Position numbers and translations under genes: made by a program
Part shown: in pieces, positions 15,722-41,749 of the stretch
Layout of the letters: every line of letters starts with the position of its first letter
Position numbering within the stretch: position 1 is the stretch's first letter
Notes under the pieces: generated by a model
The model's input: the letters and a program-made list of their open reading frames with translations, nothing else
Told to the model about the DNA's origin: nothing
Database searches by the model: none
NCBI GenBank assembly: GCA_963843375.1
Contig: CAWJKT010000004.1
Location: forward strand, 416,001-480,000
Length of the DNA stretch: 64,000 bases
Origin: an uncultured Pseudomonadota bacterium
GTDB taxonomy: Bacteria > Oederibacteriota > Muellerivitia > Muellerivitales > Muellerivitaceae
Direction: 5' to 3'

Positions 15722-16885
15722 TTAGTCCGACTCGGCTGTTTCGGAATTGTAAGCATTGCCTTCGGCATCGAACAAGTCGTAAGAACCATCGTTTAATTTC
15801 AACATGATTTCCAGAGGCCTGCCGTTGTCCAGGTTCGAATATTGAACACTTTGGACACCCGAAGCCAGATAAACAGGCTCAAAGGCCTGCGGATTGGCCG
15901 TATCATACAAGAAAGCGTCCCCGTCACCTGGTACGACTTTCACCATCCTCTTGCTGTCGGGGCTGTTATAAACCAAGTCGGTTGATTGCTCGGCGCCCGT
16001 CACAACCACCTGGTCATCCGCAGAATTGGCGGGGATATAGTTGTCATCGTCATAAACATAAAGCTCCCCCACGTGATAGGGATCCTGCCACCACCAATAA
16101 TTGTCGTTATAGAAACACCAGCGGTTAAAGCCAGGGTCATACCACCACCAACGGCCATCGTAATTTCGGGTCCAAAAAAACTGGTCACCCGCGTACCAGC
16201 CATACCATTGATAACCCGAATTATCGATAAAGTGGGAGTAGCTAAAACCACCGTCGGTATGCCAATAAACATGGTTTCTTTGGGTTTCATTGGCGTTTTC
16301 CCGGTCGATGCGCTGCATATAGGCCGGACGATTCACGACCGACATCTGGTTGCGCACCACGCTTCCATTAAATTGCCGGGGAGAAACCATCGATCCCTTG
16401 AAAGGCTCGCCTTTTGGGCCTGTGGAAGGATTACCAATCATCGAATGGGCGCGATCCGTGGAAACTATCTCGGAACGGTCGGCAATGTATTTGGGTTCGG
16501 TCTTCACGCCGATTTTCGACAACTTCTTACGGACATAACCCTGTTTATAGGCATGGTGATGAACGGCGGTAGCCGACCGTACTCCCGGCACGTGAGCGGT
16601 ACTCGATGGCCGAACGGCATGTGTTTTTGGAGCCGTCTGGATCCTCTGAGTTTGGCTATAGGAGGGATGGTATGCCGGGTGATAAGTATTGTCACCACTG
16701 TAGTGATTCATTTGAATCCGCACCGGCTGACGGGCTTGTGTCGAGGAATGCGTAAATGATCTGCCGCGACTATCGCCATCTCCACCGCGACTTTCTCCAC
16801 CCCTTCCAGCATGTTCTTCCGCAAAACAAACGGCAACGCCTAGAAAAAGAACGAACAACCAAGATAAACAGGTGATTTGTTTCAT
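15722..16885 (-). CDS. Secreted hypothetical protein with low-complexity N-half and Trp/Tyr-rich segment
   Basis: Signal peptide; YQWYGWY...RWWWYDPGFNRWCFYNDNYWWWQDPY; own sigma54 promoter. Confidence 0.75.
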   Translation of the reverse strand: MKQITCLSWLFVLFLGVAVCFAEEHAGRGGESRGGDGDSRGRSFTHSSTQARQPVRIQMNHYSGDNTYHPAYHPSYSQTQRIQTAPKTHAVRPSSTAHVPGVRSATAVHHHAYKQGYVRKKLSKIGVKTEPKYIADRSEIVSTDRAHSMIGNPSTGPKGEPFKGSMVSPRQFNGSVVRNQMSVVNRPAYMQRIDRENANETQRNHVYWHTDGGFSYSHFIDNSGYQWYGWYAGDQFFWTRNYDGRWWWYDPGFNRWCFYNDNYWWWQDPYHVGELYVYDDDNYIPANSADDQVVVTGAEQSTDLVYNSPDSKRMVKVVPGDGDAFLYDTANPQAFEPVYLASGVQSVQYSNLDNGRPLEIMLKLNDGSYDLFDAEGNAYNSETAESD

Positions 16886-16945
16886 GTTACCCCTTTTTTA
16901 TTATCCACTTTTGATGCGTTCGTCGATCATCAAGCAGATAGGTAA

Positions 16946-16961
16946 AGCAAGAATTGAGCCC
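16946..16961 (-). promoter_or_regulatory. sigma54 -24/-12 promoter (gene 15722-16885)
   Basis: Minus strand GGGCTCAATTCTTGCT = GG-N10-GC. Confidence 0.7.
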
Positions 16962-17000
16962 GTAAAATATTCGGTAATTCCGAAAGCCGCCGCTTTAGGC

Positions 17001-17033
17001 GATCAGAACGATAGCCTTATTCTCATTTTGGGT
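17001..17033. promoter_or_regulatory. Bipartite enhancer motif, copy 1 (most degenerate)
   Basis: GATCAGAACGATA-N7-TCTCATTTTGGGT between divergent sigma54 promoters. Confidence 0.6.
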
Positions 17034-17092
17034 TTCAACCGCTTTAAAAACCAAACAACGAACCTATTCCACTTTTAAAACCACTAGGCCCA

Positions 17093-17108
17093 TGGCTTGC
17101 TTCTTGCT
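17093..17108 (+). promoter_or_regulatory. sigma54 -24/-12 promoter (YceI gene)
   Basis: TGGCTTGCTTCTTGCT. Confidence 0.75.
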
Positions 17109-17173
17109 TTTAATCCTAGATTCCCCACTTGAGCTTGGCCTCAAGTCGCTAAATTTCACAAAGGAGAACGTAT

Positions 17174-17956
17174 ATGAGATATATGACGCTGACATTGATC
17201 TCGATCATGGGGTTGGTAACGGTTTCGACTGTTGTGGTTTTGGCCGGGGATTCCTCCCCGGTGTCAAATGAAAATCATTCCACCGAAAAAAAGTCCGCGC
17301 AAGGGAATGTCCAATGGTATGAAAAAGCCGCTGAAACGATCGGTCCAGTGGACGGCATGGCCTCCAAGGGTGAAGACAATCTCACTCTACAAGCGGGAAG
17401 TATCGCTTACATGGAGGGAAACTCCACTTTGCATAAGTACCAGATGAACGCTACTGCTTTGAAAGGTTCGGCACTTTTGAAAGCCTCCTCAAAAGATCTG
17501 GTCAAGGCTCTCAAGAATGGGAAAGTGGGTGCCATGACTTTCATGGTTCCGCTCATCAGCTTCAAGTCGAAGGACTCGGGTCTGGATAAAAACGCTTATA
17601 AAGCCCTTAAAGCCAAGGACGATCCAGAGATCAAGTTTCTATTAACAAGTGAAACCTTGAAACCCGGCAAGGACGCCGACACTTATGTGATGACTGCCAA
17701 AGGCAGCCTAGCGGTAGCAGGCGAGACAATTCCTATTATTCTTACCGCTGATACGACGTTCAAGGGAGACCAGGTCCGCCTTAAAGGAACACAACAGTTG
17801 AAATTTACGGATTTCAAAATCAAGCCTCCGTCTGCCTCGATTTTGTTTGTTACGATCACCTGCACCGATGAGTTCGAGGTTCATTATGACGTGACCTTCG
17901 GGCCAAGTAAGAGTGGAAACAAGGTGGTGGAGATTACAGGTAGTCGAGGCGGCTGA
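17174..17956 (+). CDS. YceI-family periplasmic lipid/polyisoprenoid-binding protein
   Basis: Signal peptide; EGNSTLH, LD.NAYKALKA...PEIKF, GSLAVAG, FTDFKIKPP; AAGGAG RBS. Confidence 0.85.
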   Translation: MRYMTLTLISIMGLVTVSTVVVLAGDSSPVSNENHSTEKKSAQGNVQWYEKAAETIGPVDGMASKGEDNLTLQAGSIAYMEGNSTLHKYQMNATALKGSALLKASSKDLVKALKNGKVGAMTFMVPLISFKSKDSGLDKNAYKALKAKDDPEIKFLLTSETLKPGKDADTYVMTAKGSLAVAGETIPIILTADTTFKGDQVRLKGTQQLKFTDFKIKPPSASILFVTITCTDEFEVHYDVTFGPSKSGNKVVEITGSRGG

Positions 17957-18081
17957 AAAAATTATCAAGGGATCTTATTTCTTTGAACCTCTTTTCTGAA
18001 ATGACCATGACCGGAGGTTGTCCCCTTGGCGAGCGGCCATTTCTTCGTAAATTAATTTAACAAGCAAGTAAAGGCATCAAA

Positions 18082-18783
18082 GTGTTCCACTGGCTGCAGT
18101 CCCTGCTCACCCATAACGGTTATTGGGTCGTTTTTCTGGTAGTGTTTTTGAACAACCTTTGCTTTCCTGTTCCAGGAGATTCGATGTTGTTGGGGGGCGG
18201 CTTTCTTGGGGAAAAGGGAATTCTTTCCTTGTGGGCCGTGATTGCCGCCGGTACGCTGGGGTGCTTTTTGGGTGGTAACGGCGGTTATTGGCTTGGGTGG
18301 CGTTTTGGACGTCGTTTTTTGGAAAAAAATCGCTGGCTCCAGGTTACTCCCGAAAGGGAGGAACAAATGGATCGTTTTTTCGCCAAATTCGGGGCAAAAG
18401 TTGTTTTTTTTGCACGGTTCGTGGCCTTGCTTCACCCTGTAACCGGCATCCTGGCAGGCATTGGGAAAACGCCTTTCCGCCCTTTTCTTTTTTACAACTT
18501 AATAGGAGCCTTTAGCTATTCCGCCCTCTACGCTATCGTGGGATATTTTTTTGGGCAAAGATGGGAACTTTTCAAAAGCTGGATCGGTCCTGTCGCGCTT
18601 TACACGCTTCTGATTGCCGCGGCTCTCTTTTCCCTTAGTTTGTTTTTGCAGCACTCGATTCGTGCTTTTTTTGCCGGGCTTTCCTCAAAAAAAAATCCCA
18701 CCAAAACCATAGTGAAAAAAGCCCCAAAAACTTCCCGTGAGGGTTCTTTAAACCACCCTTCATGGGTGGAAAAGAAACCATAA
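18082..18783 (+). CDS. DedA-family membrane protein
   Basis: FPVPGDSMLLGGGFL, GYWLG.RFG, FFARFV, FLFYNLIGA. Confidence 0.9.
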   Translation: MFHWLQSLLTHNGYWVVFLVVFLNNLCFPVPGDSMLLGGGFLGEKGILSLWAVIAAGTLGCFLGGNGGYWLGWRFGRRFLEKNRWLQVTPEREEQMDRFFAKFGAKVVFFARFVALLHPVTGILAGIGKTPFRPFLFYNLIGAFSYSALYAIVGYFFGQRWELFKSWIGPVALYTLLIAAALFSLSLFLQHSIRAFFAGLSSKKNPTKTIVKKAPKTSREGSLNHPSWVEKKP

Positions 18784-19122
18784 ATGGAAAAGCCTATCAA
18801 ATCGAGAGTTCCTCAGCTAAGAAAATTAACAAAGAATTGTAAAGGACTTGCCGTTTTATTGTTGGGGAGGAGTACAATCATATTGATCAAACGGCCATCA
18901 ATCCGATGGTCCACGGCCCCGGCGAATGTCCCAAGGGAATCCGAACCAATCTTTAAACCTCAATTTGGTTCAACCAACTCGGCCTTTTCAAATCACTATC
19001 ATTTAAATAAATATTTGGTGGATGTAGAAACGTCCCGCAAAAATCCCGGTCAATCTGACGGAAGTCATAATCCAAAATTTCTCGAATGAAAAAATGAGCA
19101 AGATCCTTGAAGGGAGCTGTTT

Positions 19123-20751
19123 ATGCGCGTTGAAGACCTGGACTTAAAAGAATTATTGGAGTTGGACCCGGGCGGGGGAATGGTTCATTTCGCGGGGCAG
19201 AGAGCCTTGATCTTTGATGCCGTGGCCCAGGGACTCCTCCGTAAGGAACTCATCGATGCTTATGGTGAAAGAACGGCCAGGGGTATTCTCAGTCGTTTCG
19301 GATATATCCACGGTAGGCGTCTGGCGGTAGCCTTGAAATCCAAATTCAAATGGGACACCGCAGAAGAATGGCAGAAAGCGGGAGCCAGGATTTTGGCACT
19401 TCAGGGTCTTTTTATGTTAGATCCTAACAGTCCCAATGCTTTCGGCCCCGAAGGTGGGACTTGGCGCGTTTCCTATGAAGCCGAACAACATATTCTTTTG
19501 AAGGGCCGTTCGGATAAGTCAGTCTGTTGGAACCTTTGCGGGATGATCAGCGGTTACTTGAGCTTCTGCTTGGACAAGGAAATGTACGCTCTGGAGGATA
19601 AGTGCATCGGAAAGGGCGATACGGCCTGCCATGTGGTGATCAAGTCCGAGGAAGAATGGGGAGACGAGGTTGACGGTGAATTGGCAGTTTTCAAGCGGGT
19701 GGGGATTGACGAAGCCTTGCGAGACGTTACTACCATCCTTAAACGAACGGAAAGCGAATTGCAGGAGAGAACCCGCAAGCTAACGGTCATCGCCAAAATC
19801 GAGGAGGATCCGGCCGAACTTTTGGCTCGAAGTCCTGAAATGCGTAACTTAATGGAACTGGCTAAGACCATTGCTGCCATTGACTCCACGGTATTGATTA
19901 CTGGGGAGAGCGGAACGGGGAAAGAAAGAGTGGCGCGCTTTGTCCACGATCATTCGCCACACGCGGCGGGCCCATTTATTGCCGTGAACTGCGGAGCTAT
20001 CACCGAGACCCTATTGGAAAGCGAACTTTTTGGCCATGCTCGGGGTTCTTTTACGGGCGCCACGTCGGATCGTCCGGGACTTTTTGAAGCTGCCAATGGC
20101 GGGACTCTTTTCCTTGATGAGGTTGGCGAGATCACACTTCCCATGCAGGTGAAGCTCCTTCGGGCGCTTCAGGAAAGAGAAGTGCGGCGGGTTGGCGAGA
20201 ACAAAAGCCGCCCCATCAATGTTCGCATCGTTAGCGCGACCAATAAGAACCTTAAGGTCGAGGTGGCGGAGAAAAGATTCCGGGAAGACCTTTATTATCG
20301 CCTGAACGTGGTGGAACTGGCCGTTCCTCCCCTGCGCAAGCGCCGGGAAGATATCCTACCCCTCGCACGCCTGCTTCTTGCGGAATCCGCGATCCAAATG
20401 AAAAGAGACGTCGACGGCTTGACTGCCGCGACGGCGGACCAACTGATCAGTTACGCCTGGCCTGGGAACGTGCGCGAACTGGCGAATGCCATGGAGCGAG
20501 CGGTCGCAGTGGCCAAGACGAACCGCGTTGATCTGGAGGATCTTCCTCCCGAAGTGTTAATGAAAATGCCACTGGTTTCCGACAAAGGCATTCCACGGTT
20601 TTTAAAGGATGTGGAGAAGGATTGTATCCTTGGGGCGTTGGAAAAGACGGAGGGGAACCGAAGAAAAGCCGCCGATATGATGGGTGTGGGTGTGGCGACA
20701 CTCTATCGTAAACTCAAGGCCTATAAATTGTTGGATCGGGTGAAAGATTAG
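19123..20751 (+). CDS. sigma54-dependent enhancer-binding protein with XylR-N and V4R sensor domains
   Basis: N-terminal GQRALIF and V4R Cys/Glu pattern (CW..CG..SGY, EDKCIGKGD.AC); GESGTGKE, ESELFGH, GSFTGA, LFLDE, WPGNVREL, C-terminal HTH ATLYRKLK. Confidence 0.93.
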   Translation: MRVEDLDLKELLELDPGGGMVHFAGQRALIFDAVAQGLLRKELIDAYGERTARGILSRFGYIHGRRLAVALKSKFKWDTAEEWQKAGARILALQGLFMLDPNSPNAFGPEGGTWRVSYEAEQHILLKGRSDKSVCWNLCGMISGYLSFCLDKEMYALEDKCIGKGDTACHVVIKSEEEWGDEVDGELAVFKRVGIDEALRDVTTILKRTESELQERTRKLTVIAKIEEDPAELLARSPEMRNLMELAKTIAAIDSTVLITGESGTGKERVARFVHDHSPHAAGPFIAVNCGAITETLLESELFGHARGSFTGATSDRPGLFEAANGGTLFLDEVGEITLPMQVKLLRALQEREVRRVGENKSRPINVRIVSATNKNLKVEVAEKRFREDLYYRLNVVELAVPPLRKRREDILPLARLLLAESAIQMKRDVDGLTAATADQLISYAWPGNVRELANAMERAVAVAKTNRVDLEDLPPEVLMKMPLVSDKGIPRFLKDVEKDCILGALEKTEGNRRKAADMMGVGVATLYRKLKAYKLLDRVKD

Positions 20752-20783: not shown

Positions 20784-21482
20784 TTACGCCAAGTCAAAGA
20801 GAAGAATTTCGGTTGGCTCTATTGAGGTAAAAGAAACGCAAATTTCGCCAGAAAAACCGGCTCCATCTCCGGCTTTAAGATTTAGTTCATTTAGTGTAAT
20901 CCGGCCTTTGACCACATGAAGCCAGGCTCTCCTTCCAGGCTTCAATTCATGAATCATGTGGTTTCCCTTATGAATCAGCGTGGAATACATTTGGACGTCC
21001 TGTTGTATTTTGAGGGAATCCTCTTTTCCGTCAGATGAGGCGATAAGCCTTAGGATCCCTTTGCGCTCGGCTAGGGTGAAAAATTTTTTGCTTCCTTTTG
21101 CTTCCATCACCCCGGTACCGAGGGTAAAGCCGCTTTGGAAAACATGCGCGTCCTCGGAAGAGGAAAGATCATATGCGGAAAGTTTTGTGCCAGAGGTGGC
21201 TTTGACTCGGTGAAATTCTTGGGCCCTCAGCAATTCGGGATTTTCAAAAAGTCCTTTATATACTATAAGGCCTTCGTGGACATAACTGACGACGACCATA
21301 TCCTCGTGTGTGTGTAGGATGAATCCATGGCCTGGTGAAAGGATTTCCTCGTTGAATATCTTGAGTGATCCAAAACCTTCTTTGAGAGGATCGAACTTAT
21401 TTTCCCAGTCGAAAGTCAACCAAGTGCTTTGATTCTCGTTGGAGATATGGCGCCGTTCTTCCGATTTTCTGACCGTGATCAT
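20784..21482 (-). CDS. Pirin-family (bicupin) protein, degenerate metal site
   Basis: MITVRKSEERRH, GFGSLKIFNEE, GF.LHTH.DM, LIASSDG, LKPGRRAWLHVVKG, LLFDLA. Confidence 0.85.
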   Translation of the reverse strand: MITVRKSEERRHISNENQSTWLTFDWENKFDPLKEGFGSLKIFNEEILSPGHGFILHTHEDMVVVSYVHEGLIVYKGLFENPELLRAQEFHRVKATSGTKLSAYDLSSSEDAHVFQSGFTLGTGVMEAKGSKKFFTLAERKGILRLIASSDGKEDSLKIQQDVQMYSTLIHKGNHMIHELKPGRRAWLHVVKGRITLNELNLKAGDGAGFSGEICVSFTSIEPTEILLFDLA

Positions 21483-21638: not shown

Positions 21639-21654
21639 TGCAAATAACACGCCA
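21639..21654 (-). promoter_or_regulatory. sigma54 promoter (pirin)
   Basis: Minus strand TGGCGTGTTATTTGCA. Confidence 0.75.
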
Positions 21655-21706: not shown

Positions 21707-21740
21707 TGTCAAAACGAGAAAAAAGAATATCGTTTTGATC
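21707..21740. promoter_or_regulatory. Bipartite enhancer motif, copy 2
   Basis: TGTCAAAACGAGA-N8-TATCGTTTTGATC. Confidence 0.75.
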
Positions 21741-23776: not shown

Positions 23777-23792
23777 AGCAAGAAATGAGCCA
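23777..23792 (-). promoter_or_regulatory. sigma54 promoter (ADH-Crp/Fnr operon)
   Basis: Minus strand TGGCTCATTTCTTGCT. Confidence 0.78.
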
Positions 23793-23854: not shown

Positions 23855-23889
23855 GATCAAAACGAGAGCGAAGAACGATCATTTTGATC
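23855..23889. promoter_or_regulatory. Bipartite enhancer motif, copy 3
   Basis: GATCAAAACGAGA-N9-GATCATTTTGATC between divergent sigma54 promoters. Confidence 0.78.
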
Positions 23890-23991: not shown

Positions 23992-24007
23992 GGGTACGAA
24001 ACTTGCT
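23992..24007 (+). promoter_or_regulatory. sigma54 promoter (rhodanese operon)
   Basis: GGGTACGAAACTTGCT. Confidence 0.75.
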
Positions 24008-24424: not shown

Positions 24425-24510
24425 GTTTTTTAACCGCCGCGTTCCATTGAGGAACGGGGCTTTAATTATTACGAACATAAAAAGTCGGTTAATTCACAAA
24501 AAGAGGGATT

Positions 24511-33599: not shown

Positions 33600-33919
33600 T
33601 TAAACCTTCTTCAAATCGACTAGTTTATTTTCCGGGCGTTTCGGCGGATCATTCGCCGGACGAGTGCCAACGGCGGATTGTTTTTGGCCAGGGGCCCATT
33701 CGGTGTTGATCTTGGCATATTCCGGATTCTCATCTGCGCTTTCTACGATGGCACCGATAGGGCAGGCAAACAGCTGCTGCAATCGGAGCACTCACTGGGG
33801 TTAATAATCATGAAGGCTTGAATCTTATATTGTCCGGGATGAATGCAATTCATCGGACAAACTTCGACGCAATTCGCGTAAACCTCACTCAGGCGTTTAT
33901 CGGTAATGACATAGGGCAT
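33600..33919 (-). pseudogene. Ferredoxin (7Fe/FdxA-like), frameshifted, first Cys replaced by Arg
   Basis: MPYVITDKRL..VYANCVEVCPMNCIH...CSDCSSCL then shifts to CPIGAIVE; GAGGAG RBS. Confidence 0.7.
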
Positions 33920-34071
33920 GACTCCTCTTTTTTCTATCCGAACTTCCTTTCCCGGGATGAGCTTGGTAATTTCTGAATTTTTTGAACTTAATCGAGTTTA
34001 TAAGTCGAAGACTTTTTTTCAAAAGACCCCGCTTGACATTAATTGGAATTATTTTTTTATTGAAACGATGG

Positions 34072-34105
34072 GATCAAAATGAGAGTCGGAGCAATCATTT
34101 TGAAA
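34072..34105. promoter_or_regulatory. Bipartite enhancer motif, copy 5
   Basis: GATCAAAATGAGA-N8-AATCATTTTGAAA. Confidence 0.75.
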
Positions 34106-34268: not shown

Positions 34269-35036
34269 ATGAAGAAATTGGTTTTGCTGGCCGTTGTTCT
34301 GTTTGTCGCGAGTAGCATGGATTTAGTCTTCGCCCAAACCACCGGAACGAATTCCAAGTCGGTTAAAAAAGAAGCGCACCGCAGAATCGTCAAACTGAAG
34401 GACCGAATCGGTAATCAACGCGAAAGGATCGACCAGGGCCTCGAAGCCAACACCCTGACAGCGGATCAAGCCCAGGCCAGCCGGGATGTTTTGGATAAGG
34501 TCGTGAAGCAGATGAAAGATGAGCGCGCGGCCAACGGTTCGAAGAAAGTCATGAAGAAAGAACAATATGACGCCTATAACACCTTGCTTGACGCAAATTC
34601 TAACGGCATCAATGAAGAGAAACAGTATTTCTATTACTACGGCCCCTATGTCGATTACGGCGCCGATTACAGTTATTACTACGACCCTTACACGGTTGAA
34701 GGGGCTCCCACTCCGTCCATGACCGCGTTGGAAGAGACGCATCCGCGGATTTTTGAACTGAAGGAACGAATCCAGGGCCAACGCGAACGCATCGACAAGG
34801 AGTTGACCGCCAACACGCTAACAGAGGATCAAGCCAAGGGATGTCGGGATGTTCTGGCGTCCGTCGAGAATCAGATAAAAATGGATTATAAGGCAAATGG
34901 TTCTATGAAAATGACGAAGGAACAATATCTCGCCTATAACGCGACGCTGGATGTGAATTCGTCGATCATTCACGAGGGAAAACAATATTATTACTATTAC
35001 GGTCCTTACTACGATCAATACCAATATTGGGATTGA
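34269..35036 (+). CDS. Secreted protein with two internal helical repeats and Tyr-rich tails
   Basis: Signal peptide; two copies of H.RI..LK.RI..QRERID..L.ANTLT.DQA...KQY.YYYGPY; GGAGG RBS. Confidence 0.8.
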   Translation: MKKLVLLAVVLFVASSMDLVFAQTTGTNSKSVKKEAHRRIVKLKDRIGNQRERIDQGLEANTLTADQAQASRDVLDKVVKQMKDERAANGSKKVMKKEQYDAYNTLLDANSNGINEEKQYFYYYGPYVDYGADYSYYYDPYTVEGAPTPSMTALEETHPRIFELKERIQGQRERIDKELTANTLTEDQAKGCRDVLASVENQIKMDYKANGSMKMTKEQYLAYNATLDVNSSIIHEGKQYYYYYGPYYDQYQYWD

Positions 35037-35190
35037 GGGACATTTGTTTTGACTTTTTAAGTCCTGTTCGAAAACCTTGCTTTTAAAGTGATAAAAGGAT
35101 CGGTGCGTCTCTTAAATTACTACGGCCGGTCCTTTTGTCTTTAGGGCCTTAAAAGACGAGATCTGGAATATTTTCTTAAAGGAGAAATTC

Positions 35191-35583
35191 ATGTTAATCG
35201 CTGAATTGTTGTTCGCTCTTTTCTTTAGCTGGATTGTCGTTGGGATCATTTCATTCGCTTTTGGCACAAAGGGCCCTTGGGATAATTTTCTTTGGTTTTT
35301 TCTAGTCGTGGGCCTTTTCGCGTGGGTTGGCGGCGTATGGCTGAGGCCTTTTGGACCCTTATGGATGGGGATAGGCTGGTTGCCCATTATTTTCGCGGGA
35401 CTCTTTGTCGCGATGTTGCTCACGGCGGCCAGTCCCCGGGACCACCGCAAGCGCCTGGCGGCTAAAGGACAGACAGCCGACGATGAAACGAGATCGGCCG
35501 TCAACGTCTTTTTTTGGGTGTTAATTGTTTGTTTATTGTTTTTTGGGATGGGTCACCACTATTGGTATCCCGTGGCCGGTTGA
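35191..35583 (+). CDS. Hypothetical membrane protein (4 TM)
   Basis: Hydrophobic 130-aa ORF, AAGGAG RBS. Confidence 0.75.
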   Translation: MLIAELLFALFFSWIVVGIISFAFGTKGPWDNFLWFFLVVGLFAWVGGVWLRPFGPLWMGIGWLPIIFAGLFVAMLLTAASPRDHRKRLAAKGQTADDETRSAVNVFFWVLIVCLLFFGMGHHYWYPVAG

Positions 35584-35667
35584 AACTGTTTTAAAAACGG
35601 GATCGGGAAACAAACTTTATTAAAACCAAGTTCATCTCGATTCACTTTTTAATCTTAAGGAGGATTC

Positions 35668-36339
35668 ATGGGTAAGGGTGATTTCGTCAATAATCTGCAG
35701 GAAATCCGCAAAAGAGCCAGGGAACACATACAGGAAGGTGCCGTAACGGAAGGCTATCGCGCCAACCGAGAAGTCGTCATCAAAATTTTGAACGAGGCCC
35801 TCGCCACCGAAATCATTTGTGTCCTGCGCTACAAGAGACATTTTTATATGGCCCAGGGAATCGACGCATCGAACGCCGCCCAAGAGTTTCTCCAGCACGC
35901 GACGGAAGAACAAGGGCATGCCGATGAAATATCCCTTCGCATCACCCAACTAGGGGGTGCCCCCGATTACAGCCCTGTGAGACTCGTCGACCGAAGTCAT
36001 TCCGAATATGTGGAGGGGAACGGTCTGATCGAAATGATCCGGGAGGACTTGGTGGCGGAAAGAATCGCCATCGATTCCTATACGGACATGATCCGCTACG
36101 TGGGTGATGACGATGTTACCACCCGTCGGATGTTGGAAAACATTCTTGGGGTGGAAGAAGAACATGCCAATGACATGGCCACTTTGTTGGAAAAAATGAA
36201 CCCGGGTATTTCCCGTGAAATTGTTTCCCCGGTGACTGAGTTTTATTCCCGGAGCAAAACGCGAAAGGCTGGCGTTACCGTTTTGGATGTTTCCCGGAAG
36301 AATGCTTTACCTCAAAAAAAGATGAAGAAAACCAAATGA
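35668..36339 (+). CDS. Ferritin-like / bacterioferritin-family protein with basic C-terminal tail
   Basis: LNEALATE...Y, EEQGHAD, EDLVAE..AI..Y, EEEHA di-iron ligands. Confidence 0.88.
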   Translation: MGKGDFVNNLQEIRKRAREHIQEGAVTEGYRANREVVIKILNEALATEIICVLRYKRHFYMAQGIDASNAAQEFLQHATEEQGHADEISLRITQLGGAPDYSPVRLVDRSHSEYVEGNGLIEMIREDLVAERIAIDSYTDMIRYVGDDDVTTRRMLENILGVEEEHANDMATLLEKMNPGISREIVSPVTEFYSRSKTRKAGVTVLDVSRKNALPQKKMKKTK

Positions 36340-36440
36340 GTCTCGTTGATCCAGGCCAGACGAATCCAACGTTCTACAAAACCCGGTTCTCTTGCCTGCC
36401 TTGGGTAAGAACAATTTAACATCCAAAGGAGGTTGCCGTC

Positions 36441-36731
36441 ATGGGTGAGGAAAGGGACGCATACGTTGAGAAATTGAAGGCGGAGATTGTGAAATGGAAT
36501 GTCAAAATCGAGGAATTTCAAGCCAAGACGGAACAGGCCAAAGCGGAAGCCCAAGGGCAATATCAAAATCAAATCGAAGAACTAAAGGAAAAACGATTCA
36601 AACTCCAGGAAAAATTGGAACTGTTGCAAGAAGTCAGCGAAACGGTTTGGGAGGAAATGAAAGCCGGCCTAGACACCGCCTTTTACGCCTTGGACGAATC
36701 GGTTGTGACGGCCAAGTCAAAGTTCAATTGA
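36441..36731 (+). CDS. Coiled-coil stress-associated protein (sll1863-like), paralog 2
   Basis: Similar to 33025-33315 over its length; AGGAGG RBS. Confidence 0.8.
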   Translation: MGEERDAYVEKLKAEIVKWNVKIEEFQAKTEQAKAEAQGQYQNQIEELKEKRFKLQEKLELLQEVSETVWEEMKAGLDTAFYALDESVVTAKSKFN

Positions 36732-36768
36732 CCGGCTACTCCTCCAGATTACCACCCAAGAAGTTAGG

Positions 36769-37266
36769 TTGGAAGGAATGATTGTGAAACCTAACATGGT
36801 GGTCCCGGGGTTGGCTTGTTCCTGGCAGGAGGACTTTGATGAGGTGGCCGACGTTACGGTGGAATGCCTTTTACGGACGATTCCTGCCGCCGTACCGGGG
36901 ATCGTATTCTTTTCAGGCGGCCAAAACCCTGAACTAGTTTCTACCCGTTTGAACGCCATGAATGTCAGGTTCAAATCACAGATTCCTTGGGCCCTGTCCT
37001 TTTCCTTCGCCCGGGCTCCCCAACAACCGGCTTTGGAGATTTGGCGGGGCGATGAGGATCACTTGTTGTCGGCCCAGGGAGCCCTTTGTCACCGGGCCAT
37101 GTGCAACCGGGCTGCCCGTCGCGGTGAATATGATGACGCGATCGAAAGTGCATGGTCATTACCGCCGGTAGCCCTCAACCGGCGTGAATCGCTTTATAGC
37201 CAAGACGGGAAAATACCCGCGACGGAATCAAAATTTTTACAAACCTTCCCGGAGGAAAAAGGATGA
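36769..37266 (+). pseudogene. Class I fructose-bisphosphate aldolase, C-terminal fragment only
   Basis: LEGMIVKPNMV Schiff-base Lys motif, VPGIVFFSGGQ, PWALSFSFARA; no room for the N-terminal part. Confidence 0.8.
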
Positions 37267-38687
37267 AGAGCTCACAAATACAATTTCATGAAATCGGCAT
37301 GGTCGGGCTGGGCGTCATGGGGCGCAATCTGGTGCTGAACATGGCCGACCAGGGTTTTTCAGTGGCGGGTTATGACAAGGACCGGACCCAAGCCGAGGCT
37401 CTTCGTAAGGAATCAGGCGAACGCCAAGTCGGCGTCGCGGCGGATATACCCGGGTTCATCGCAATGCTTCGCCGACCCCGAGCCATCATGATGTTGGTAC
37501 CCGCCGGGGCTCCCGTGGATTCGGTGATCAAGGACTTGTTGCCGTACCTGGACAAGGGCGACCTGCTAATCGACGCGGGTAATTCCCATTTTAGAGATAC
37601 GGATATGCGTGCCAAAACTTTGACGGACGAAGGCATCTCATTCCTCGGCGTGGGTGTTTCGGGTGGGGAGGAAGGGGCGCGTCACGGTCCGAGCATCATG
37701 CCCGGTGGGCCAAAGGAGGCTTACGAAAGGGTCAGGCCCATCCTGGAAGCCGCCTCTGCAAAGGTCGACGGCGATCCCTGTGTGACCTGGCTGGGTCCGG
37801 GATCGGCGGGGCATTTCGTAAAGATGGTCCATAACGGTATCGAGTACGGCATCATGCAATTGACTGCCGAAATCTATGACTTGATGAAAAGGGGCGGGGG
37901 CCTAAATGACGACGAAATCCAAGATGCTTTCGCCTCATGGAACAAGGGCGAACTTAACGGCTATCTGGTGGAAATCTCTGGTCAAATTTTTTCAAAAAAA
38001 GACCAGAAGACCGGAAAACGACTGATAGACGAAATTCTTGATGTGGCTAGACAGAATGGCACCGGCTTGTGGACCTCGCAAAGCGCTATGGAATTAAAAG
38101 TTCCAACCCCCACTATCGACTTGGCGGTTGCCATGCGGGATTTCTCCTTGCTTTCAAAGGAAAGGGAACGGGCGGGAGTGATTTATCAGCGGCCTTTGCG
38201 GCATTTCAACTGCGACCGCGAAACTTTGCTTGCGCAACTGGGTGGCGGACTTTTTACCGGGATGATAACCGTTTATGCACAAGGGTTGGCGATTTTGTCC
38301 GTGGCTTCCAGAAAGTACGAGTACCAGCTCGACCTGGAAGCGGTGGCACGCATCTGGCGGGGCGGCTGCATCATCCGTTCCGCCTCGCTTGAAGATATTC
38401 GGGCGGCGTTTAAGACGGAACGGGACCTGCCGAATTTGCTGCTGGATCCCAAGCTGTCGCGCAAGGTAATGGGACGGCAGGAGAATTTGCGCTTGGTGGT
38501 TAACTGGGCGGCTGAATCGGGTGTGCCGGCCCCCGGCTTGATGGTTTCCTTAGGCTATCTTGACACTTATCGCAGCGCTTGGCTTCCAGACAATCTTATT
38601 CAGGCCCAGCGCGATTATTTCGGCGCCCATACTTATGAGCGCATTGATTCGAAAGGGACTTTTCACACCGAATGGGAAAAAAAATGA
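37263..38687 (+). CDS. gnd: 6-phosphogluconate dehydrogenase, NADP-dependent decarboxylating
   Basis: GLGVMG, VSGGEEGA, GHFVKMVHNGIEYG, IWRGGCIIRS, QAQRDYFGAHTY. Confidence 0.95.
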   Translation: MKSSQIQFHEIGMVGLGVMGRNLVLNMADQGFSVAGYDKDRTQAEALRKESGERQVGVAADIPGFIAMLRRPRAIMMLVPAGAPVDSVIKDLLPYLDKGDLLIDAGNSHFRDTDMRAKTLTDEGISFLGVGVSGGEEGARHGPSIMPGGPKEAYERVRPILEAASAKVDGDPCVTWLGPGSAGHFVKMVHNGIEYGIMQLTAEIYDLMKRGGGLNDDEIQDAFASWNKGELNGYLVEISGQIFSKKDQKTGKRLIDEILDVARQNGTGLWTSQSAMELKVPTPTIDLAVAMRDFSLLSKERERAGVIYQRPLRHFNCDRETLLAQLGGGLFTGMITVYAQGLAILSVASRKYEYQLDLEAVARIWRGGCIIRSASLEDIRAAFKTERDLPNLLLDPKLSRKVMGRQENLRLVVNWAAESGVPAPGLMVSLGYLDTYRSAWLPDNLIQAQRDYFGAHTYERIDSKGTFHTEWEKK

Positions 38688-40183
38688 AAACAAAGCACCC
38701 TCTCGAACCGACTCTAGTCGTGATTTTCGGTGGGGCGGGTGACTTGACTTGGCGCAAGTTGATCCCGTCTTTGTTCGATTTGTACCGGGACGGGCGTATG
38801 CCGGAAAAATTCTCGATTATTGCCATGGATCGTGTCCCATTCGGTAATGAACCGCTACGCAAAAGGTTTCTCGTCGGTGTGAACCGCTTCTCGTCGAAAG
38901 GGAAAGTGAAAAACGGGGACTGGAAAAGTTTCGCCGGGAACATTACCTATCAAGCCGGGGATTTCAAGGACCCGGCCTCTTACATAACTTTGGGCAAAAG
39001 CTGTGAAAAGCTGGAGAGAGATTGGAAGGCGAAAGCCAGCCGTATCTTTCACCTGGCTACCCCTCCGGCGATGTTCGGAGTGATTCCCAAAATGCTGGCT
39101 GACGCAGGACTGAACCTCGACCGTGCCCACGCCCGAATTGTTGTGGAAAAACCGATTGGCCATGACCTGGATTCGGCCCGGGAACTGAACCGCCTCCTCA
39201 CCGAAAGCTTCCAGGAGTCGCAAATTTACCGCATCGACCATTACTTGGGAAAGGAGACGGTGCAAAACATTCTAGCTTTCCGATTCGCCAATCCCCTTTT
39301 TGAACCGATTTGGAACCGGCGTTACGTGGACTACGTCACCATAACGGTGGCGGAAGAGGTAGGGGTCGGACATCGGGGCGGTTATTACGACCAAGCGGGG
39401 GCCTTGCGGGATATGGTGCAGAACCACTTGATGCAGTTGTTCTGCCTAGTGGCAATGGAGCCGATGGTTTCCTTCAACGCCGACGAAATCCGCAACAAAA
39501 AGGTGGATGTTCTCCACGCCGTGCGGCCAATCCACCGGGGCGCGATCAAGCAGTCCGCTGTGCGAGGGCAGTACGGCCCGGGCCGCCTTGTCGGTAAGAA
39601 AACGCCTGGTTACCGCCAGGAAAAGGACGTATCCCCCCGATCCAAAACCGAAACCTATGCGGCGTTAAAGTTATTCGTGGACAACTGGCGCTGGCAGGGA
39701 GTGCCCTTCTACCTTCGTACGGGCAAGCGTCTTGTCAAGCAGGTTTCGGAAGTGGCCATCCAATTTCGGTCGGTACCCCATGAGTCGTTCCCGGATGAGT
39801 CCCGGGACGATTGGAACCCATCTCGGCTCGTGCTGTCGATCCAACCCCAGGAGGGTATCGTCATGGGCTTTCAGGCAAAGGTGCCGGGGCCCCGGATGTT
39901 GCTCAGGCCGGTCGAAATGCGGTTCAACTACCAGGATAGTTTTTCGGTGCCCTCTCCGGACGCCTATGAAACCCTGCTCTCGGATGTGATCAACCATGAT
40001 CCCACCTTGTTCATGCGAACCGATCAGGTCGAAGCCGCGTGGCAAATCATGATGCCGGTCTTGAAGGCCTGGGCGGAATCGAATCCTGGTGATTTTCCCA
40101 ACTATACCGCCGGCAGTTGGGGACCCCAGGCGGCAGATGAATTGCTCGCTCGCGAAGGGCATTCTTGGAGGCCAATCAATTGA
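38684..40183 (+). CDS. zwf: Glucose-6-phosphate 1-dehydrogenase
   Basis: GGAGDL, EKP, RIDHYLGKE, DMVQNH, WQGVPFYLRTGK. Confidence 0.95.
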   Translation: MKTKHPLEPTLVVIFGGAGDLTWRKLIPSLFDLYRDGRMPEKFSIIAMDRVPFGNEPLRKRFLVGVNRFSSKGKVKNGDWKSFAGNITYQAGDFKDPASYITLGKSCEKLERDWKAKASRIFHLATPPAMFGVIPKMLADAGLNLDRAHARIVVEKPIGHDLDSARELNRLLTESFQESQIYRIDHYLGKETVQNILAFRFANPLFEPIWNRRYVDYVTITVAEEVGVGHRGGYYDQAGALRDMVQNHLMQLFCLVAMEPMVSFNADEIRNKKVDVLHAVRPIHRGAIKQSAVRGQYGPGRLVGKKTPGYRQEKDVSPRSKTETYAALKLFVDNWRWQGVPFYLRTGKRLVKQVSEVAIQFRSVPHESFPDESRDDWNPSRLVLSIQPQEGIVMGFQAKVPGPRMLLRPVEMRFNYQDSFSVPSPDAYETLLSDVINHDPTLFMRTDQVEAAWQIMMPVLKAWAESNPGDFPNYTAGSWGPQAADELLAREGHSWRPIN

Positions 40184-40865
40184 GAATCCTGGTACTGGAT
40201 GTGGGTGGAACGCATGTGAAAATACTGGCAACGGGTCATCGGCAGCGAGTCGAATTTTCCTCTGGCCCTAAAATGACGCCCGCGAAAATGGTGCCGCAGT
40301 GAAAGAAGCAACGGCTGGTTGGAAGTATGACGCCGTTTCGATCGGTTATCCCGGTCCCGTCGTCCATGGTCGTCCCATCGTGGAGCCAAAACATCTTGGG
40401 GCCAGCTGGATGGGATTTGACTTTAAAAAAGCCTTCGGACATTCGGTCAAAATTGCCAATGACGCAGCCATGCAGGCCCTGGGTAGTTACCAGGGCGGAC
40501 GGATGCTTTTTCTTGGATTGGGCACGGGCCTTGGGTCCGCGATGATCGTGGACCATGTCTTGGAACCGATGGAACTTGCCCATTTGCCTTATCAAAAGGG
40601 ACGGACCTTTGAGGACTATATCGGACTGACGGGATTGGAACGACTGGGGAAAAAGAAATGGCGCCACCAGGTGAACAAAATCATCCAACTCCTTCAGAAA
40701 GCGGTGCAGGCCGATTATGTCGTGCTCGGGGGAGGCAACGCCCGATTACTCAAGAAGCTTCCCCCAGGGGGGCGTCTTGGGGACAACTCTAACGCTTTCC
40801 AAGGCGGATATCGACTTTGGAGCAAGCTTTATAACGGCCCAACCCACAAACGATTCTTAAATTAA
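40180..40865 (+). CDS. ROK-family sugar kinase (polyphosphate glucokinase-like); frameshift near 40298
   Basis: LRILVLDVGGTHVK then NDAAMQALG, GLGTGLGS, ELAH, GGGNA. Confidence 0.85.
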
Positions 40866-40888
40866 CTCATGAAAAAGAAAACATAGCC

Positions 40889-41165
40889 ATGAATCCAATT
40901 GACAACTTCGCCGCATTCGGCGCGCCTGGAATCGAGCCACGGTGGTCCTCCAGCGCAAAGGAAGGACTAGGTACCTCTTATCACACCAACTGACGGGCCT
41001 GGTTCACGCTTAGCCACGGCATCGTCGATGAAATCTACTTTCCAACCGTCGACCAGCCGAACACGCGTGATTTCCAGTTCCTGATTAGCGATGGCAAAAC
41101 CTTCTGACACGAGGAAAAGCACGACCTTGACCACCGGGTTGAATATCCCGAAAAGGACTCGGTTG
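40889..41165 (+). pseudogene. Glucoamylase-type (GH15) N-terminal remnant with two in-frame TGA
   Basis: AFGAPGIEPRWSSSAKEGLGT..*RAWFTLSHGIVDEIYFPTVDQPNTRDFQFLISDGKTF*HEEK; truncated. Confidence 0.7.
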
Positions 41166-41177
41166 ACTTGGAAAAAG

Positions 41178-41210
41178 TATCGAAACGAGAGTCCGAAAAT
41201 CATTTTGATC
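41178..41210. promoter_or_regulatory. Bipartite enhancer motif, copy 6
   Basis: TATCGAAACGAGA-N7-AATCATTTTGATC. Confidence 0.75.
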
Positions 41211-41290
41211 GTAAAGATTCTCTGAAAAACTGATTCGATTATTTTCCACTGGAAAACAGGGTTTTGCTGTTTCATTCCTTTAGTATTCAA

Positions 41291-41306
41291 TGGCATCTTC
41301 CTTGCT
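41291..41306 (+). promoter_or_regulatory. sigma54 promoter
   Basis: TGGCATCTTCCTTGCT. Confidence 0.78.
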
Positions 41307-41435
41307 TTAACTACAATTCTAAATCAAAACCGAAAAAGGCTGACAGGTTCAAATCGCGGCGGGGAATCGAAATTTTTGACGGCGATAGTGGGAGTCGACT
41401 TTAATTCGGGAATCTCTCTCCTCTATGGACGTACC

Positions 41436-41470
41436 GGGTCGGCTTCCCAAAGGCCGACCCGCCTTATTTT
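41436..41470 (+). terminator. Terminator-like hairpin
   Basis: GGGTCGGCTT-CCCA-AAGGCCGACCC region followed by gccttatttt. Confidence 0.55.
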
Positions 41471-41530
41471 GGGAAAAAGGACCTGGAATTTCGGCCCTTA
41501 AACATCCTTCGTTGAGAAAGCGTTGGAACC

Positions 41531-41749
41531 ATGACGAAGCACCACTATGAACATCAGCACACGTCGTACCCGGAACCGGAGATCAGTGAGGTCCGCGGTC
41601 CCTATTGGCGGCGTGCGCACCGCGATTGGCGTTTTTTGGCCGTGGTGTTCCTGATGCTCGTCTGCATTCTAGTTTACGTATTCACCGGCGATTTCGCATG
41701 GACGTCCCACGGACACGCTGTTGCGATCTTGGCCCCCAGTGGAAACTAA
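41531..41749 (+). CDS. Small membrane protein, paralog of 31506-31724
   Basis: MTKHHYEHQH...PYWRRAHRDWRFL plus TM. Confidence 0.72.
   Translation: MTKHHYEHQHTSYPEPEISEVRGPYWRRAHRDWRFLAVVFLMLVCILVYVFTGDFAWTSHGHAVAILAPSGN

Follow-up and report, generated by a model that had tools for sequence, protein, structure and literature searches.

Stress survival programmes in bacteria are elsewhere assigned to dedicated stress sigma factors; besides the σS regulon, the σB and σEcfG regulons are further general stress regulons with comparable gene content. σ54-dependent regulons reconstructed around bacterial enhancer-binding proteins (bEBPs) comprise 1-4 operons with a maximum of 12 (PMC4641369) or 1-6 operons (PMC6615313), and GSFTGA is a listed working variant (PMC4641369). 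The bEBP XylR, according to the available text of bioRxiv 10.1101/2021.01.17.427014, also represses its own gene.

The 64,000-nucleotide stretch of DNA analysed here (the window) comes from an uncultured bacterium from soil and peat, and is probably, together with three further islands, part of a dispersed σ54 regulon acting as a general stress/survival response. The master switch is most likely a one-component activator of the XylR type, of which the genome has three copies, with about 26 promoters over the four islands. If this is true, a switch protein of a type usually devoted to activating enzymes of pollutant breakdown drives broad stress survival; literature searches found no description of such a regulon.

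The 26-kb island and its activator

The enhancer-binding protein named in a preliminary description was recovered with its XylR_N domain, AAA+ domain bearing GSFTGA and HTH (helix-turn-helix) of the Fis type; its V4R domain scores 28.7 bits, just below the 31-bit cut-off. All nine σ54 promoters of that description are in place, each showing GG-N10-GC plus TTGC as the -12 element, and eight do have the upstream motif (the box), centred -82 to -146 from the predicted starts. Its gene list agrees with Pfam and NCBIfam apart from three corrections: the Fe/Mn superoxide dismutase (SOD) gene is frameshifted, with a Pfam match limited to the C-terminal part; an IS1-family element splits the gene behind the promoter at 27592; and about 215 bp, with a hairpin between, separate the promoter at 41291 from its open reading frame. 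The features are as follows (promoters run from GG to the C of the -12 element).

15722-16885, minus strand: secreted 387-aa protein of unassigned family; first gene behind promoter 1
16947-16960, minus strand: σ54 promoter 1; box centre -82
17001-17033: enhancer box 1, 30.5 bits; common to divergent promoters 1 and 2
17094-17107, plus strand: σ54 promoter 2; box centre -102
17174-17956, plus strand: YceI-like protein, downstream of promoter 2
18082-18783, plus strand: DedA/VTT membrane protein, after the YceI-like gene
19123-20751, plus strand: XylR_N/V4R-AAA+-HTH enhancer-binding protein, 542 aa, GSFTGA
20784-21482, minus strand: pirin, first gene behind promoter 3
21640-21653, minus strand: σ54 promoter 3; box centre -95
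21707-21740: enhancer box 2, 37.4 bits
21890-22585, minus strand: Crp/Fnr-family regulator, behind promoter 4
22616-23653, minus strand: Zn alcohol dehydrogenase, behind promoter 4
23778-23791, minus strand: σ54 promoter 4; box centre -106
23855-23889: enhancer box 3, 39.5 bits; common to divergent promoters 4 and 5
23993-24006, plus strand: σ54 promoter 5; box centre -146
24050-27570, plus strand: co-oriented run behind promoter 5 (rhodanese, unknown protein, DUF5670, outer-membrane beta-barrel, Fe/Mn SOD, DUF7130, Dps)
25038-25163, plus strand: DUF5670 protein of this run
25883-26483, plus strand: frameshifted Fe/Mn SOD of this run
26986-27570, plus strand: Dps, last gene of this run
27593-27606, plus strand: σ54 promoter 6, without box
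27746-29553, plus strand: IS1-family element with terminal inverted repeats of 21 bp and a target duplication of 8 bp
29838-29871: enhancer box 4, 35.1 bits
29914-29927, plus strand: σ54 promoter 7; box centre -84
29988-30533, plus strand: Cu/Zn SOD, downstream of promoter 7, first gene of the run 29988-33315
within 29988-33315, plus strand: small proteins including a PLDc_N protein, after Cu/Zn SOD
33022-33315, plus strand: sll1863-family stress protein, end of this run
34072-34105: enhancer box 5, 35.5 bits
34188-34201, plus strand: σ54 promoter 8; box centre -124
34269-40865, plus strand: co-oriented run (secreted protein, membrane protein, ferritin-like, sll1863, aldolase fragment, gnd, zwf, ROK/polyphosphate-glucokinase-like)
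35668-36339, plus strand: ferritin-like protein of this run
36441-36731, plus strand: sll1863-family protein of this run
41178-41210: enhancer box 6, 35.2 bits
41292-41305, plus strand: σ54 promoter 9; box centre -123
41531-41749, plus strand: 72-aa membrane protein, paralogue of 31506-31724

Each box consists of two inverted 13-bp sites (consensus RATCAAAAYGAKN, of the form TCA-N3-TGA) two helical turns apart, with a span of 33-35, and the six boxes serve eight σ54 promoters, two of them being common to divergent pairs. Promoter 6 has no box, the best half-site in the 270 bp searched upstream reaching only 3.8 bits, and the IS1-family element within the small gene behind it lies outside the regulon. 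The stricter promoter pattern GGC-N5-Y-H-TTGC-YY has seven matches in the island, ten times the genome rate (200 dinucleotide shuffles: mean 0.5, maximum 3), and since it was modelled on these very sites the weight rests on held-out tests. The runs at 24050-27570 and 34269-40865 are each presumably co-transcribed; placing Dps, Fe/Mn SOD, gnd and zwf under these promoters depends on presumed read-through of 2-6 kb. Relatives of the 387-aa protein are first genes of box-linked promoters at three other loci, pirin is the activator's most widely kept neighbour, and the 72-aa membrane protein at 41531-41749 is kept in 7 of the 24 family genomes.

Ahead of the activator gene, this analysis adds candidate autorepression sites and a conserved structured leader:

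18795-18807: single activator-type 13-bp site (site A); site B follows 81 bp downstream
18827-18838, plus strand: conserved A-tract lying between the two sites, present in 14 of 23 leaders
18870-18888, plus strand: σ70-like -10 element (TACAAT) with overlapping site B, in 20 of 23 leaders
18909-18990, plus strand: conserved structured leader motif of 80 nt, a candidate cis-regulatory RNA

Site A lies 77-83 bp from site B in 16 of the 23 leaders, the 13-bp site B (18876-18888) overlaps the -10 element, and the A-tract may resemble an IHF site. Rfam gave no match to the leader motif. Judged by its sequence, TACAAT with site B is a candidate autorepressed promoter, from which the activator gene would be read and at which its product would repress it through sites A and B; the structured leader may tune activator level.

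Boxes and activators beyond the window

A box matrix trained on the window alone, applied to the 4.05-Mb genome at a cut-off of 22 bits, found 22 boxes, every one within four islands, rather than a motif spread evenly through the genome. Nineteen exceed 26 bits, and ten column-shuffled matrices gave 0-2 matches at 22 bits or more and none above 26. A link to σ54 promoters holds outside the window, where 13 of the 16 boxes have a σ54 site of at least 14 bits at 30-200 bp, as against none of five weaker box matches (even 10 bits is reached at only 1.8% of random positions). The host has rpoN, and the assignment of the promoters to the σ54 type is supported. A second stress sigma factor may coexist with the system, given the 19 σ70-family matches in the genome.

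The genome encodes three paralogous activators, the other two 85% and 75% identical to that of the window, with near-identical recognition helices. Judged by sequence, any of the three could act at the window's boxes. Across genomes the activator copy number is 1-4, with a structured leader before many copies.

Of the 13 family genomes that encode the activator, 11 have a strict box, compared with 1 of 11 lacking it and 1 of 16 outside the family (rpoN in 39 of 41), statistics overstated by kinship among the genomes; three genera show a clean within-genus split of box and activator. One genome (G022, 93% complete) carries two promoters at a perfect box and gave no activator when searched, and in the searched part of another (G011), which encodes two activators, there is no box. 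Family-like orthologue loci have 39 boxes in 22 of 26 loci, 37 of them with a σ54 site; Planctomycetota loci have five boxes, three with a site, in 4 of 12 loci, the only ones with a full box. Shuffled controls gave 0-2 and 0 boxes, respectively. Among 13 Planctomycetota/Holophagaceae orthologues, 11 have the 13-bp site in the 300 bp upstream of them, 28 times the rate elsewhere, a figure inflated by upstream regions being AT-richer than coding DNA.

Box span is 33-35 in 95 of 101 boxes, and box-promoter spacing follows a 10.5-bp period (R = 0.43, n = 128) with peaks near 59, 70, 79, 89, 99, 110 and 121 bp, 48 of the loci behind these counts having been retrieved with a pattern fixing the span at 32-35; homologous promoters share spacing, and R is 0.34 when only distinct distances below 130 bp are taken (n = 60). 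The boxes are very likely binding sites of the V4R activator. Each box would very probably take two activator dimers through the Fis-type HTH; a signal at the XylR_N/V4R domain would release the AAA+ domain, which would loop to the σ54 holoenzyme beside the box, on either side or on both, and so open about 26 promoters.

Signal, targets and alternative readings

The activator has zinc ligands C135, E158, C161 and C169 and Leu91 at the position of the phenol-binding histidine; that histidine occurs in none of 112 homologues, and the zinc site is retained. The XylR aromatic-pocket residues Y155 and F170 correspond to Leu/Phe/Met and Ala. The likeliest signal, with about an even chance, is a small hydrophobic molecule other than a phenol in an enlarged pocket. 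Oxidation of the zinc-thiolate site, with the subfamily-specific extra Cys139, is possible though doubtful, and a partner protein or other input has the same doubtful standing.

The genes behind the boxes are stress genes without aromatic catabolism, as first described, and no ring-hydroxylating dioxygenase was found in the 80%-complete genome. The label of an oxidative/starvation programme proved too narrow, the conserved first genes being general-stress and envelope proteins: DUF2934 (11), pirin (10), ice-binding-like lipoproteins (10), rhodanese (7), YmgE-like (6), CsbD (4), Fe-SOD (3) and SPFH (3). By sequence, conserved targets such as DUF2934, pirin, CsbD, YmgE, SOD and rhodanese resemble a general rather than a purely oxidative stress set; DUF2934 is also present in 9 of the 11 family genomes that lack the activator. 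The output (oxidant removal, iron storage, envelope/periplasmic proteins, glycogen mobilisation, NADPH supply, fermentation) would probably amount to broad protection.

The same wiring might serve a narrower purpose, in which toxic aromatics or quinones of humus and peat are sensed, much as toluene is by XylR, and the regulon provides detoxification and oxidant defence. Pirin, DoxX and YceI recur among the targets, and under E. coli YhaJ genes of these types respond to quinones and aromatics. In its fold the sensor matches PoxR, MopR and DmpR, and 56 of the 112 homologues have Tyr at the histidine position, as the available text of PMC7264223 and PMC10598577 gives for the hydrocarbon sensor XylR. 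This reading is nevertheless unlikely: the replaced pocket residues speak against it, and CsbD, YmgE, DUF5670, BON, ice-binding-like lipoproteins, the glycogen, phosphoketolase and cyclic-glucan genes, and the Usp, GroES/GroEL and ribosome-hibernation genes of Planctomycetota are not detoxification functions.

A low-oxygen persistence programme, with a sensor of redox state or of a fermentation product, has a slimmer chance still. The C9 island includes phosphoketolase, acetate kinase, two alcohol dehydrogenases, PPK2 and glycogen breakdown; cytochrome c oxidase genes lie in two islands, a Crp/Fnr-family gene stands behind box-linked promoters in the window and at two other loci, Usp genes flank the Planctomycetota orthologues, and gene classes are similar to those of the Burkholderia lxa locus (available text of PMC3721108). 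The fermentation genes, however, are separated from the nearest box by many kilobases and are thus presumed members, and SODs and catalase fit oxygen exposure as well as oxygen lack; the lxa motif, as that text presents it, is TGA-N6-TCA under Fnr/Anr-like control, against paired TCA-N3-TGA with σ54 promoters here. This programme overlaps the general stress response preferred here, the sole difference being the signal.

Binding of the box by one of the six other bEBPs of the genome, or by the island Crp/Fnr regulator, would accommodate the activator-less G022 and is quite improbable. The bEBPs were compared with five box-less family genomes at least 94% complete, with an outcome for five of the six; for C6:160396 the comparison covered 30 of 36 matches. 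Full-length orthologues were present in five of five for C15 (85-92%) and C1:28220 and in four of five for C1:79961; C5 had one orthologue at 78% and two at 58%, and C6:69657 one at 77% and two at 57-61%. Crp homologues also occur in box-less genomes, and Crp proteins are not known to activate σ54; in two other phyla the 13-bp site directly precedes the V4R gene.

The self-contained regulon first proposed, one activator for one 26-kb island, draws on six boxes and an activator lying together in the window, and is contradicted by the 16 of 22 boxes on contigs C9, C11 and C19, nine of them on an activator-less island, and by the two paralogues with the same recognition helix, which leaves it very improbable; its partial rescue, each paralogue binding its own island's boxes alone, is unlikely because the motif is common to the islands.

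Comparison with known systems

The dispersed general stress regulon favoured here shares with the σS (RpoS) regulon CsbD/YjbJ, YmgE, catalase, SOD, ferritins, glycogen, the pentose phosphate pathway and fermentation (available text of PMC5437024). Unlike σS, σB and σEcfG control, it would use σ54 and an ATP-driven one-component sensor at enhancers in place of an alternative σ70-family factor, the likeness being known from gene content. Like Burkholderia cenocepacia lxa, it has a large co-regulated island, one repeated upstream motif, stress and fermentation genes and outlying loci; unlike here, σ54 or a V4R activator goes unmentioned in the available text on lxa (PMC3721108).

In Planctomycetia, predicted σ54 promoters precede chaperone and Usp genes, which are the neighbour classes of the present activator there; V4R is named once in that paper, in its introduction, and the main text assigns no V4R activator to those genes (PMC12316311).

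With XylR, DmpR (CapR), MopR and PoxR the activator shares the XylR_N-V4R sensor, the zinc site, a Trp128 equivalent, the AAA+ domain and the Fis-type HTH, as well as paired upstream sites ahead of a -24/-12 promoter. It differs from that group in a sensor of about 25% identity lacking the phenol-anchoring His, in 1-4 copies per genome, many with a structured leader, and in stress and envelope promoters over four islands in place of aromatic catabolism. The evidence is of the same type as for the Desulfovibrio and Clostridiales bEBP regulons, an upstream activating sequence plus -24/-12 (PMC4641369); unlike those reconstructed regulons, the present one extends to about 26 promoters.

Promoters and enhancer boxes in the window and the host genome

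Sequence evidence gives good support to a real σ54 regulon in this bacterium, wider than the preliminary description had thought. All nine σ54 promoters that it claimed are present in the window, each as GG-N10-GC with TTGC at -12, and so are its six enhancer boxes, inverted pairs of 13-bp sites spanning 33-35 bp. Eight of the promoters have a box upstream, with predicted centres at -82 to -146; promoter 27592 has none, and the gene behind it is interrupted by an IS1-family element. Each 13-bp site reads TCA-N3-TGA, and 11-13 nt separate the inner TGA and TCA of a pair. The features of the window considered here are the following.

19123-20751, + strand: gene for the activator, a XylR_N/V4R-AAA+-HTH bacterial enhancer-binding protein (bEBP)
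18909-18990: conserved motif in the leader, the region 5' of the activator ORF
17001, 21707, 23855, 29838, 34072 and 41178: starts of enhancer boxes 1 to 6
27746-29553: IS1-family element bounded by terminal repeats of 21 bp, its target duplication being 8 bp long
34048-34077, - strand: weak σ70-like promoter, overlapping box 5 and directed towards a ferredoxin-like gene of 58 codons (33743-33919)
40889-41104: remnant, with stop codons, of a glucodextranase/glucoamylase N-terminal domain, running up to box 6
13150-15431, 25883-26483 and 41840-44690: frameshifted genes for a heavy-metal P-type ATPase, an Fe/Mn superoxide dismutase (SOD) and AcrB

The host genome (G000; 4.05 Mb, 80% complete, 32 contigs, with the window at C4 416001-480000) encodes σ54, the rpoN gene lying at C8:52984, and has five HU/IHF-family genes. 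With a half-site matrix trained on the six window boxes alone, the whole genome gives 27 box matches above 18 bits, of which 22 score at least 22 bits; all 22 lie in four islands, with six on C4, nine on C11 (339-381 kb), four on C19 (17-33 kb) and three on C9 (36 and 72-73 kb). Ten column-shuffled matrices never exceed 26 bits and give 0-2 matches above 22 bits; the real matrix gives 19 above 26 bits, six of which are training sites. With a promoter matrix trained on the nine window promoters alone, which reaches 10 bits at 1.8% of random positions, 13 of the 16 boxes outside the window have a σ54 site scoring 14 bits or more at a distance of 30-200 bp, as against none of the five weaker box matches; of the other three outside boxes, two have a site just past 200 bp. 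The motif is therefore neither evenly spread nor unlinked to σ54 sites; even spread without such a link had been named as the outcome that would speak against a regulon. With sites of at least 10 bits counted, the genome has 26 box-linked promoters, that is, σ54 promoters with a nearby box.

Three V4R activators are encoded in the genome: that of the window, one on C19 (85% identical) and one on C9 (75% identical), all with the recognition helix GVATLYRK; none was found in the C11 island. Since boxes occur in four islands, one of which is devoid of an activator, the regulon is dispersed and acts in trans, which contradicts its earlier portrayal as self-contained. On C9 (31181-34219; L007) the activator gene adjoins a phage-type integrase gene and shares 170 identical upstream bases with another locus (L044); together these point to recent movement of the C9 island by transfer. 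The G+C content of the window island (42-55%) is near the host background of about 50%.

Box geometry is uniform. Of the 101 distinct boxes obtained with spans of 26-45 bp permitted, 95 have a span of 33-35 bp, placing their sites 20-22 bp apart, a count that includes 48 source loci fetched with a pattern fixing the span at 32-35. For 107 boxes and 128 promoters, the distances from box to promoter GG cluster near 59, 70, 79, 89, 99, 110 and 121 bp, with a best period of 10.5 bp (R 0.43; R 0.34 on 60 distinct values below 130 bp). This apparent helical phasing agrees with a looping enhancer, common ancestry of the cassettes accounting for part of it.

Other features of the window deserve mention. 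The gene split by the IS1-family element is small and His/Asp-rich and, by eye, resembles the first genes of box-linked promoters at three other loci (L065, L080 and L107); two half-site look-alikes at 27753 and 29534 are terminal repeats of the element and were rejected. The proposal that promoter 41291 serves a conserved small RNA is unsupported, as relatives match essentially the downstream ORF alone, plus three short weak pieces. Repression by the activator of the σ70-like promoter over box 5 is conceivable; such promoter matches occur at chance level. The three frameshifts are likely to be long-read indel errors. At about 44690 the AcrB gene breaks off and G+C jumps from 55-60% to about 72%, then stays near 70% to the contig end; this is probably a chimeric join, with DNA from another organism to its right and no bearing on the regulon. 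An end of contig C19 matches window positions 43757-44686 at 87%.

The probable box-binding protein and its sensor domain

The activator was found in 13 of 24 genomes of the same family and in none of 16 more distant genomes, and an XylR_N family search returns the same distribution plus one weak match. A strict box pattern is found in 11 of the 13 activator-bearing family genomes, 1 of the 11 activator-less ones and 1 of the 16 outside the family, counts that come from kin and are not independent, and on whose P values no weight is put; the reversed pattern, used as a control, occurs in none of the genomes searched. Of the two activator-bearing genomes that fail the strict pattern, one (G008) does have a box at the level of the matrix; the single match outside the family (G033) was rejected, as it fails the matrix. 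In three genera (g2, g3 and g10) the box is confined to activator-bearing genomes; in a fourth (g12) both genomes have one box each and only one has the activator. Since rpoN occurs in all but two of the 41 genomes, it is the activator and not σ54 that the box follows. As for other regulators as the box-binding protein, genomes without a box contain likely full-length orthologues of five of the six other bEBPs, and Crp homologues are likewise found there.

The neighborhoods of activator orthologues were also scanned. At 26 family-like loci, some of them drawn from the profiled genomes so that the two tests overlap, there are 39 boxes in 22 loci, 37 of them with a σ54 site. Planctomycetota loci have five boxes (in 4 of 12 loci; σ54 site at three), and a matrix scan of the single Holophagaceae locus finds none; shuffled matrices give 0-2 boxes in the family-like loci and none in those of Planctomycetota. 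Of the 13 orthologues from Planctomycetota and Holophagaceae, 11 have the 13-bp site in the 300 bp before the gene, at a density of 21 in 3.9 kb of upstream DNA versus 33 in 169 kb elsewhere.

The domains ascribed to the activator were recovered: XylR_N (87 bits; cut-off 23), an AAA+ domain (PF00158) with GSFTGA, which is a working variant of GAFTGA (PMC4641369), and a Fis-type HTH (PF02954), with V4R falling just below its cut-off (28.7 bits; cut-off 31). The sole PDB matches to residues 1-210 are MopR, PoxR and DmpR (E 3e-17 to 1e-13); an AlphaFold model of low confidence (pLDDT 59), used for a fold check alone, has the same top Foldseek matches. Among 112 near-full-length homologues of the 120 listed, the zinc ligands C135, E158, C161 and C169 (Cys3-Glu) are invariant (112/112) and the pocket Trp W114 is nearly so (109/112). 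Position 91, which corresponds to DmpR H100 and MopR H106, is Tyr in 56, Leu in 47, Phe in five and Met in three; the phenol-anchoring His was seen in none of the 112, the window protein having Leu. His does stand there in a divergent copy from Planctomycetota and in that of Holophagaceae. This His sets phenol selectivity, and its change to Tyr makes MopR a benzene sensor that refuses phenol (PMC10598577, PMC7264223). The pocket residues of XylR include Y155 and F170 (bioRxiv 10.1101/2021.01.17.427014); by offset from the zinc ligands, their equivalents are Leu, Phe or Met for the former and Ala in 111 of 112 for the latter, suggesting a cavity larger and more apolar than that of XylR. Phenol is an unlikely effector of the window protein because the phenol-binding His is missing and this larger, more apolar cavity is suggested. 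Another cysteine, Cys139, lies one turn away from a zinc ligand; 103 of the 112 homologues have it, and the three solved sensors do not. Our guess is that the effector is a non-phenolic hydrophobic ligand or, as second choice, that a zinc-thiol redox switch operates.

Proposed control of the activator gene and its leader

In 23 aligned leaders, a single 13-bp site precedes a second one by 77-83 bp in 16, with an A-tract between the two in 14; the second site overlaps a TACAAT/TAGAAT hexamer in 20, and no -35 was seen at standard spacing from this -10-like hexamer. The arrangement suggests a looped autorepression complex on a σ70-like promoter; XylR represses its own gene (bioRxiv 10.1101/2021.01.17.427014). 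Positive feedback onto the activator could occur by read-through from promoter 17093, because just weak terminator-like matches lie in between. In two activator copies (at L031 and L059) a σ54-like promoter lies directly in front and replaces the σ70-like one, which suggests positive feedback or a paralogue cascade.

Downstream of the two 13-bp sites comes the 80-nt leader motif. Its consensus is a three-way junction, and 30 of its columns are invariant; base pairs form in 96% of cells of its alignment, with changes on both sides in 4 of 15 pairs, a number that 3 of 500 shuffles reach. Support for the structure, which comes from this 80-nt alignment alone, is modest, and the 246-nt leader taken as a whole has no better fold than its shuffles (z -0.65). 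Rfam has no match in the island or the leader, with E allowed as high as 0.5 in a search of 30 kb and as high as 10 in one of 361 bases. A model of the leader has 23 matches in 15 of 41 genomes, many of them training sequences, with 18 directly before an activator, and covers 18 of 28 activator copies; three single matches are in the host genome. Other matches precede genes for pirin (host contig C19 and G006), rhodanese (G013) and an outer-membrane-type protein (G009); the 13 Planctomycetota and Holophagaceae loci have no match. A loose metagenome scan gave at least 119 stretches, 80 with flanks, of which the model confirmed nine; all nine of these strong matches are 5' of an activator or a sensor-less derivative. 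Two such derivatives (L131 and L180) are without almost all of the XylR_N/V4R sensor, retain the leader and AAA+ domain, and are possibly constitutive forms. We hypothesize that the leader is a candidate cis-regulatory RNA, riboswitch-like or protein-binding.

Predicted targets and comparison with known systems

The first genes behind box-linked promoters most often encode DUF2934 proteins (11), pirins (10), ice-binding-like lipoproteins (10), rhodaneses (7) and YmgE-like proteins (6); rarer are CsbD (4), Fe-SOD (3), SPFH (3), YceI (2), Cu/Zn SOD (2) and Crp (2), and many of the rest are secreted or small membrane proteins of unknown family. Ice-binding-like (PF11999) lipoproteins number five in the C11 and C19 islands, the ten first-gene cases being spread over the family. 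DUF2934 averages 3.7 matches per family genome with the activator versus 1.2 without, and is still present in 9 of 11 activator-less family genomes. The other islands, in which 109 proteins were scanned, encode DoxX, BON, YihY/BrkB, an AI-2E transporter and a long catalase; a GH94 cyclic-glucan-type protein, glycogen phosphorylase, debranching enzyme and amylomaltase; phosphoketolase, acetate kinase, PPK2, transketolase and transaldolase; and cytochrome oxidase, Rieske and cytochrome b proteins. Co-orientation is the basis for assigning genes distant from a box to the regulon, first genes alone being tied directly to promoters. On C19 (24675-24767; L006) a box-linked σ54 promoter stands at the head of a run with a ThiF/E1-like gene, which would place that run inside the regulon. 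Among 32 chosen of 116 ORFs scanned, neighbors of Planctomycetota orthologues include pirin, Usp, GroES/GroEL, ribosome-hibernation proteins, DUF1328 and RRM.

As the preliminary description held, aromatic-degradation genes are absent from the 42 window and 109 other-island proteins. Ring-hydroxylating dioxygenase (PF00848) was not found in the 80%-complete genome by a search whose control worked; a phenol-hydroxylase (PF02332) search, without a positive control, is uninformative.

One V4R activator subfamily appears to control about 26 general-stress promoters, as against mostly 1-6 operons for reconstructed σ54 activators: those of Desulfovibrio have 1-4 operons, with a maximum of 12 (PMC4641369), and those of Clostridiales 1-6 (PMC6615313). 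A tentative reading, to which we give somewhat less than even weight, is that of a distinct general-stress design, in which a XylR-type one-component small-molecule or redox sensor acts through σ54 enhancers, not an alternative σ factor, with a mobile activator and gated expression. The activator would pass between phyla (FCPU426, Planctomycetota, Holophagaceae), recruiting whichever stress genes the host has, with autorepression and a riboswitch-like leader of an undescribed kind as gates on its own expression. If one subfamily does control so many general-stress promoters, an uncultured soil/peat lineage would turn on its stress survival through one ATPase that senses a ligand or redox state, and whose effector would be a new stress signal; the leader is in addition a candidate new cis-regulatory RNA. 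A cassette of about 230 bp, made up of a box with two promoters, could be rebuilt in E. coli together with the activator, making wiring and effector testable without culture of the host.

The components, a V4R bEBP, paired enhancers and σ54 promoters, are known already; searches within an open-access library gave no description of this V4R/σ54 stress system. A partial precedent comes from Planctomycetia, for which a study predicts σ54 promoters in front of genes for chaperones and Usp proteins and names no V4R activator in its main text (PMC12316311); the present protein is a candidate activator for such promoters.

XylR-type activators are regarded as sensors of pollutants that control one or two operons. 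The window activator shares with XylR/DmpR-type bEBPs the sensor, AAA+ and HTH domains, zinc site and pocket Trp, and its boxes resemble in layout their paired palindromic sites about 100-200 bp before a σ54 promoter. In contrast to those bEBPs, which control an aromatic catabolic operon, it has no such operon among its regulon proteins, and Leu replaces the His found at the phenol position of the sensors DmpR, MopR and PoxR. XylR represses a σ70 promoter of its own; here conserved sites flank and overlap a -10-like hexamer, with no -35 seen at standard spacing. A regulator of aromatic catabolism is also the subject of PMC4630880. The paired TCA-N3-TGA sites differ from the Fnr/Anr lxa-type box, TGA-N6-TCA.

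Markers of the σS regulon include CsbD, YmgE, Dps, catalase, SOD, glycogen and the pentose phosphate pathway (PMC5437024). Marker genes of such general stress regulons are also found here, with only first genes tied directly to promoters. An alternative σ70-family factor is in charge of σS-type regulons, whereas the promoters here are of σ54 type; the regulon therefore resembles σS-type regulons yet is no member of them. As predicted from sequence, the system works like XylR in mechanism and like σS in output, without one defining feature of each.
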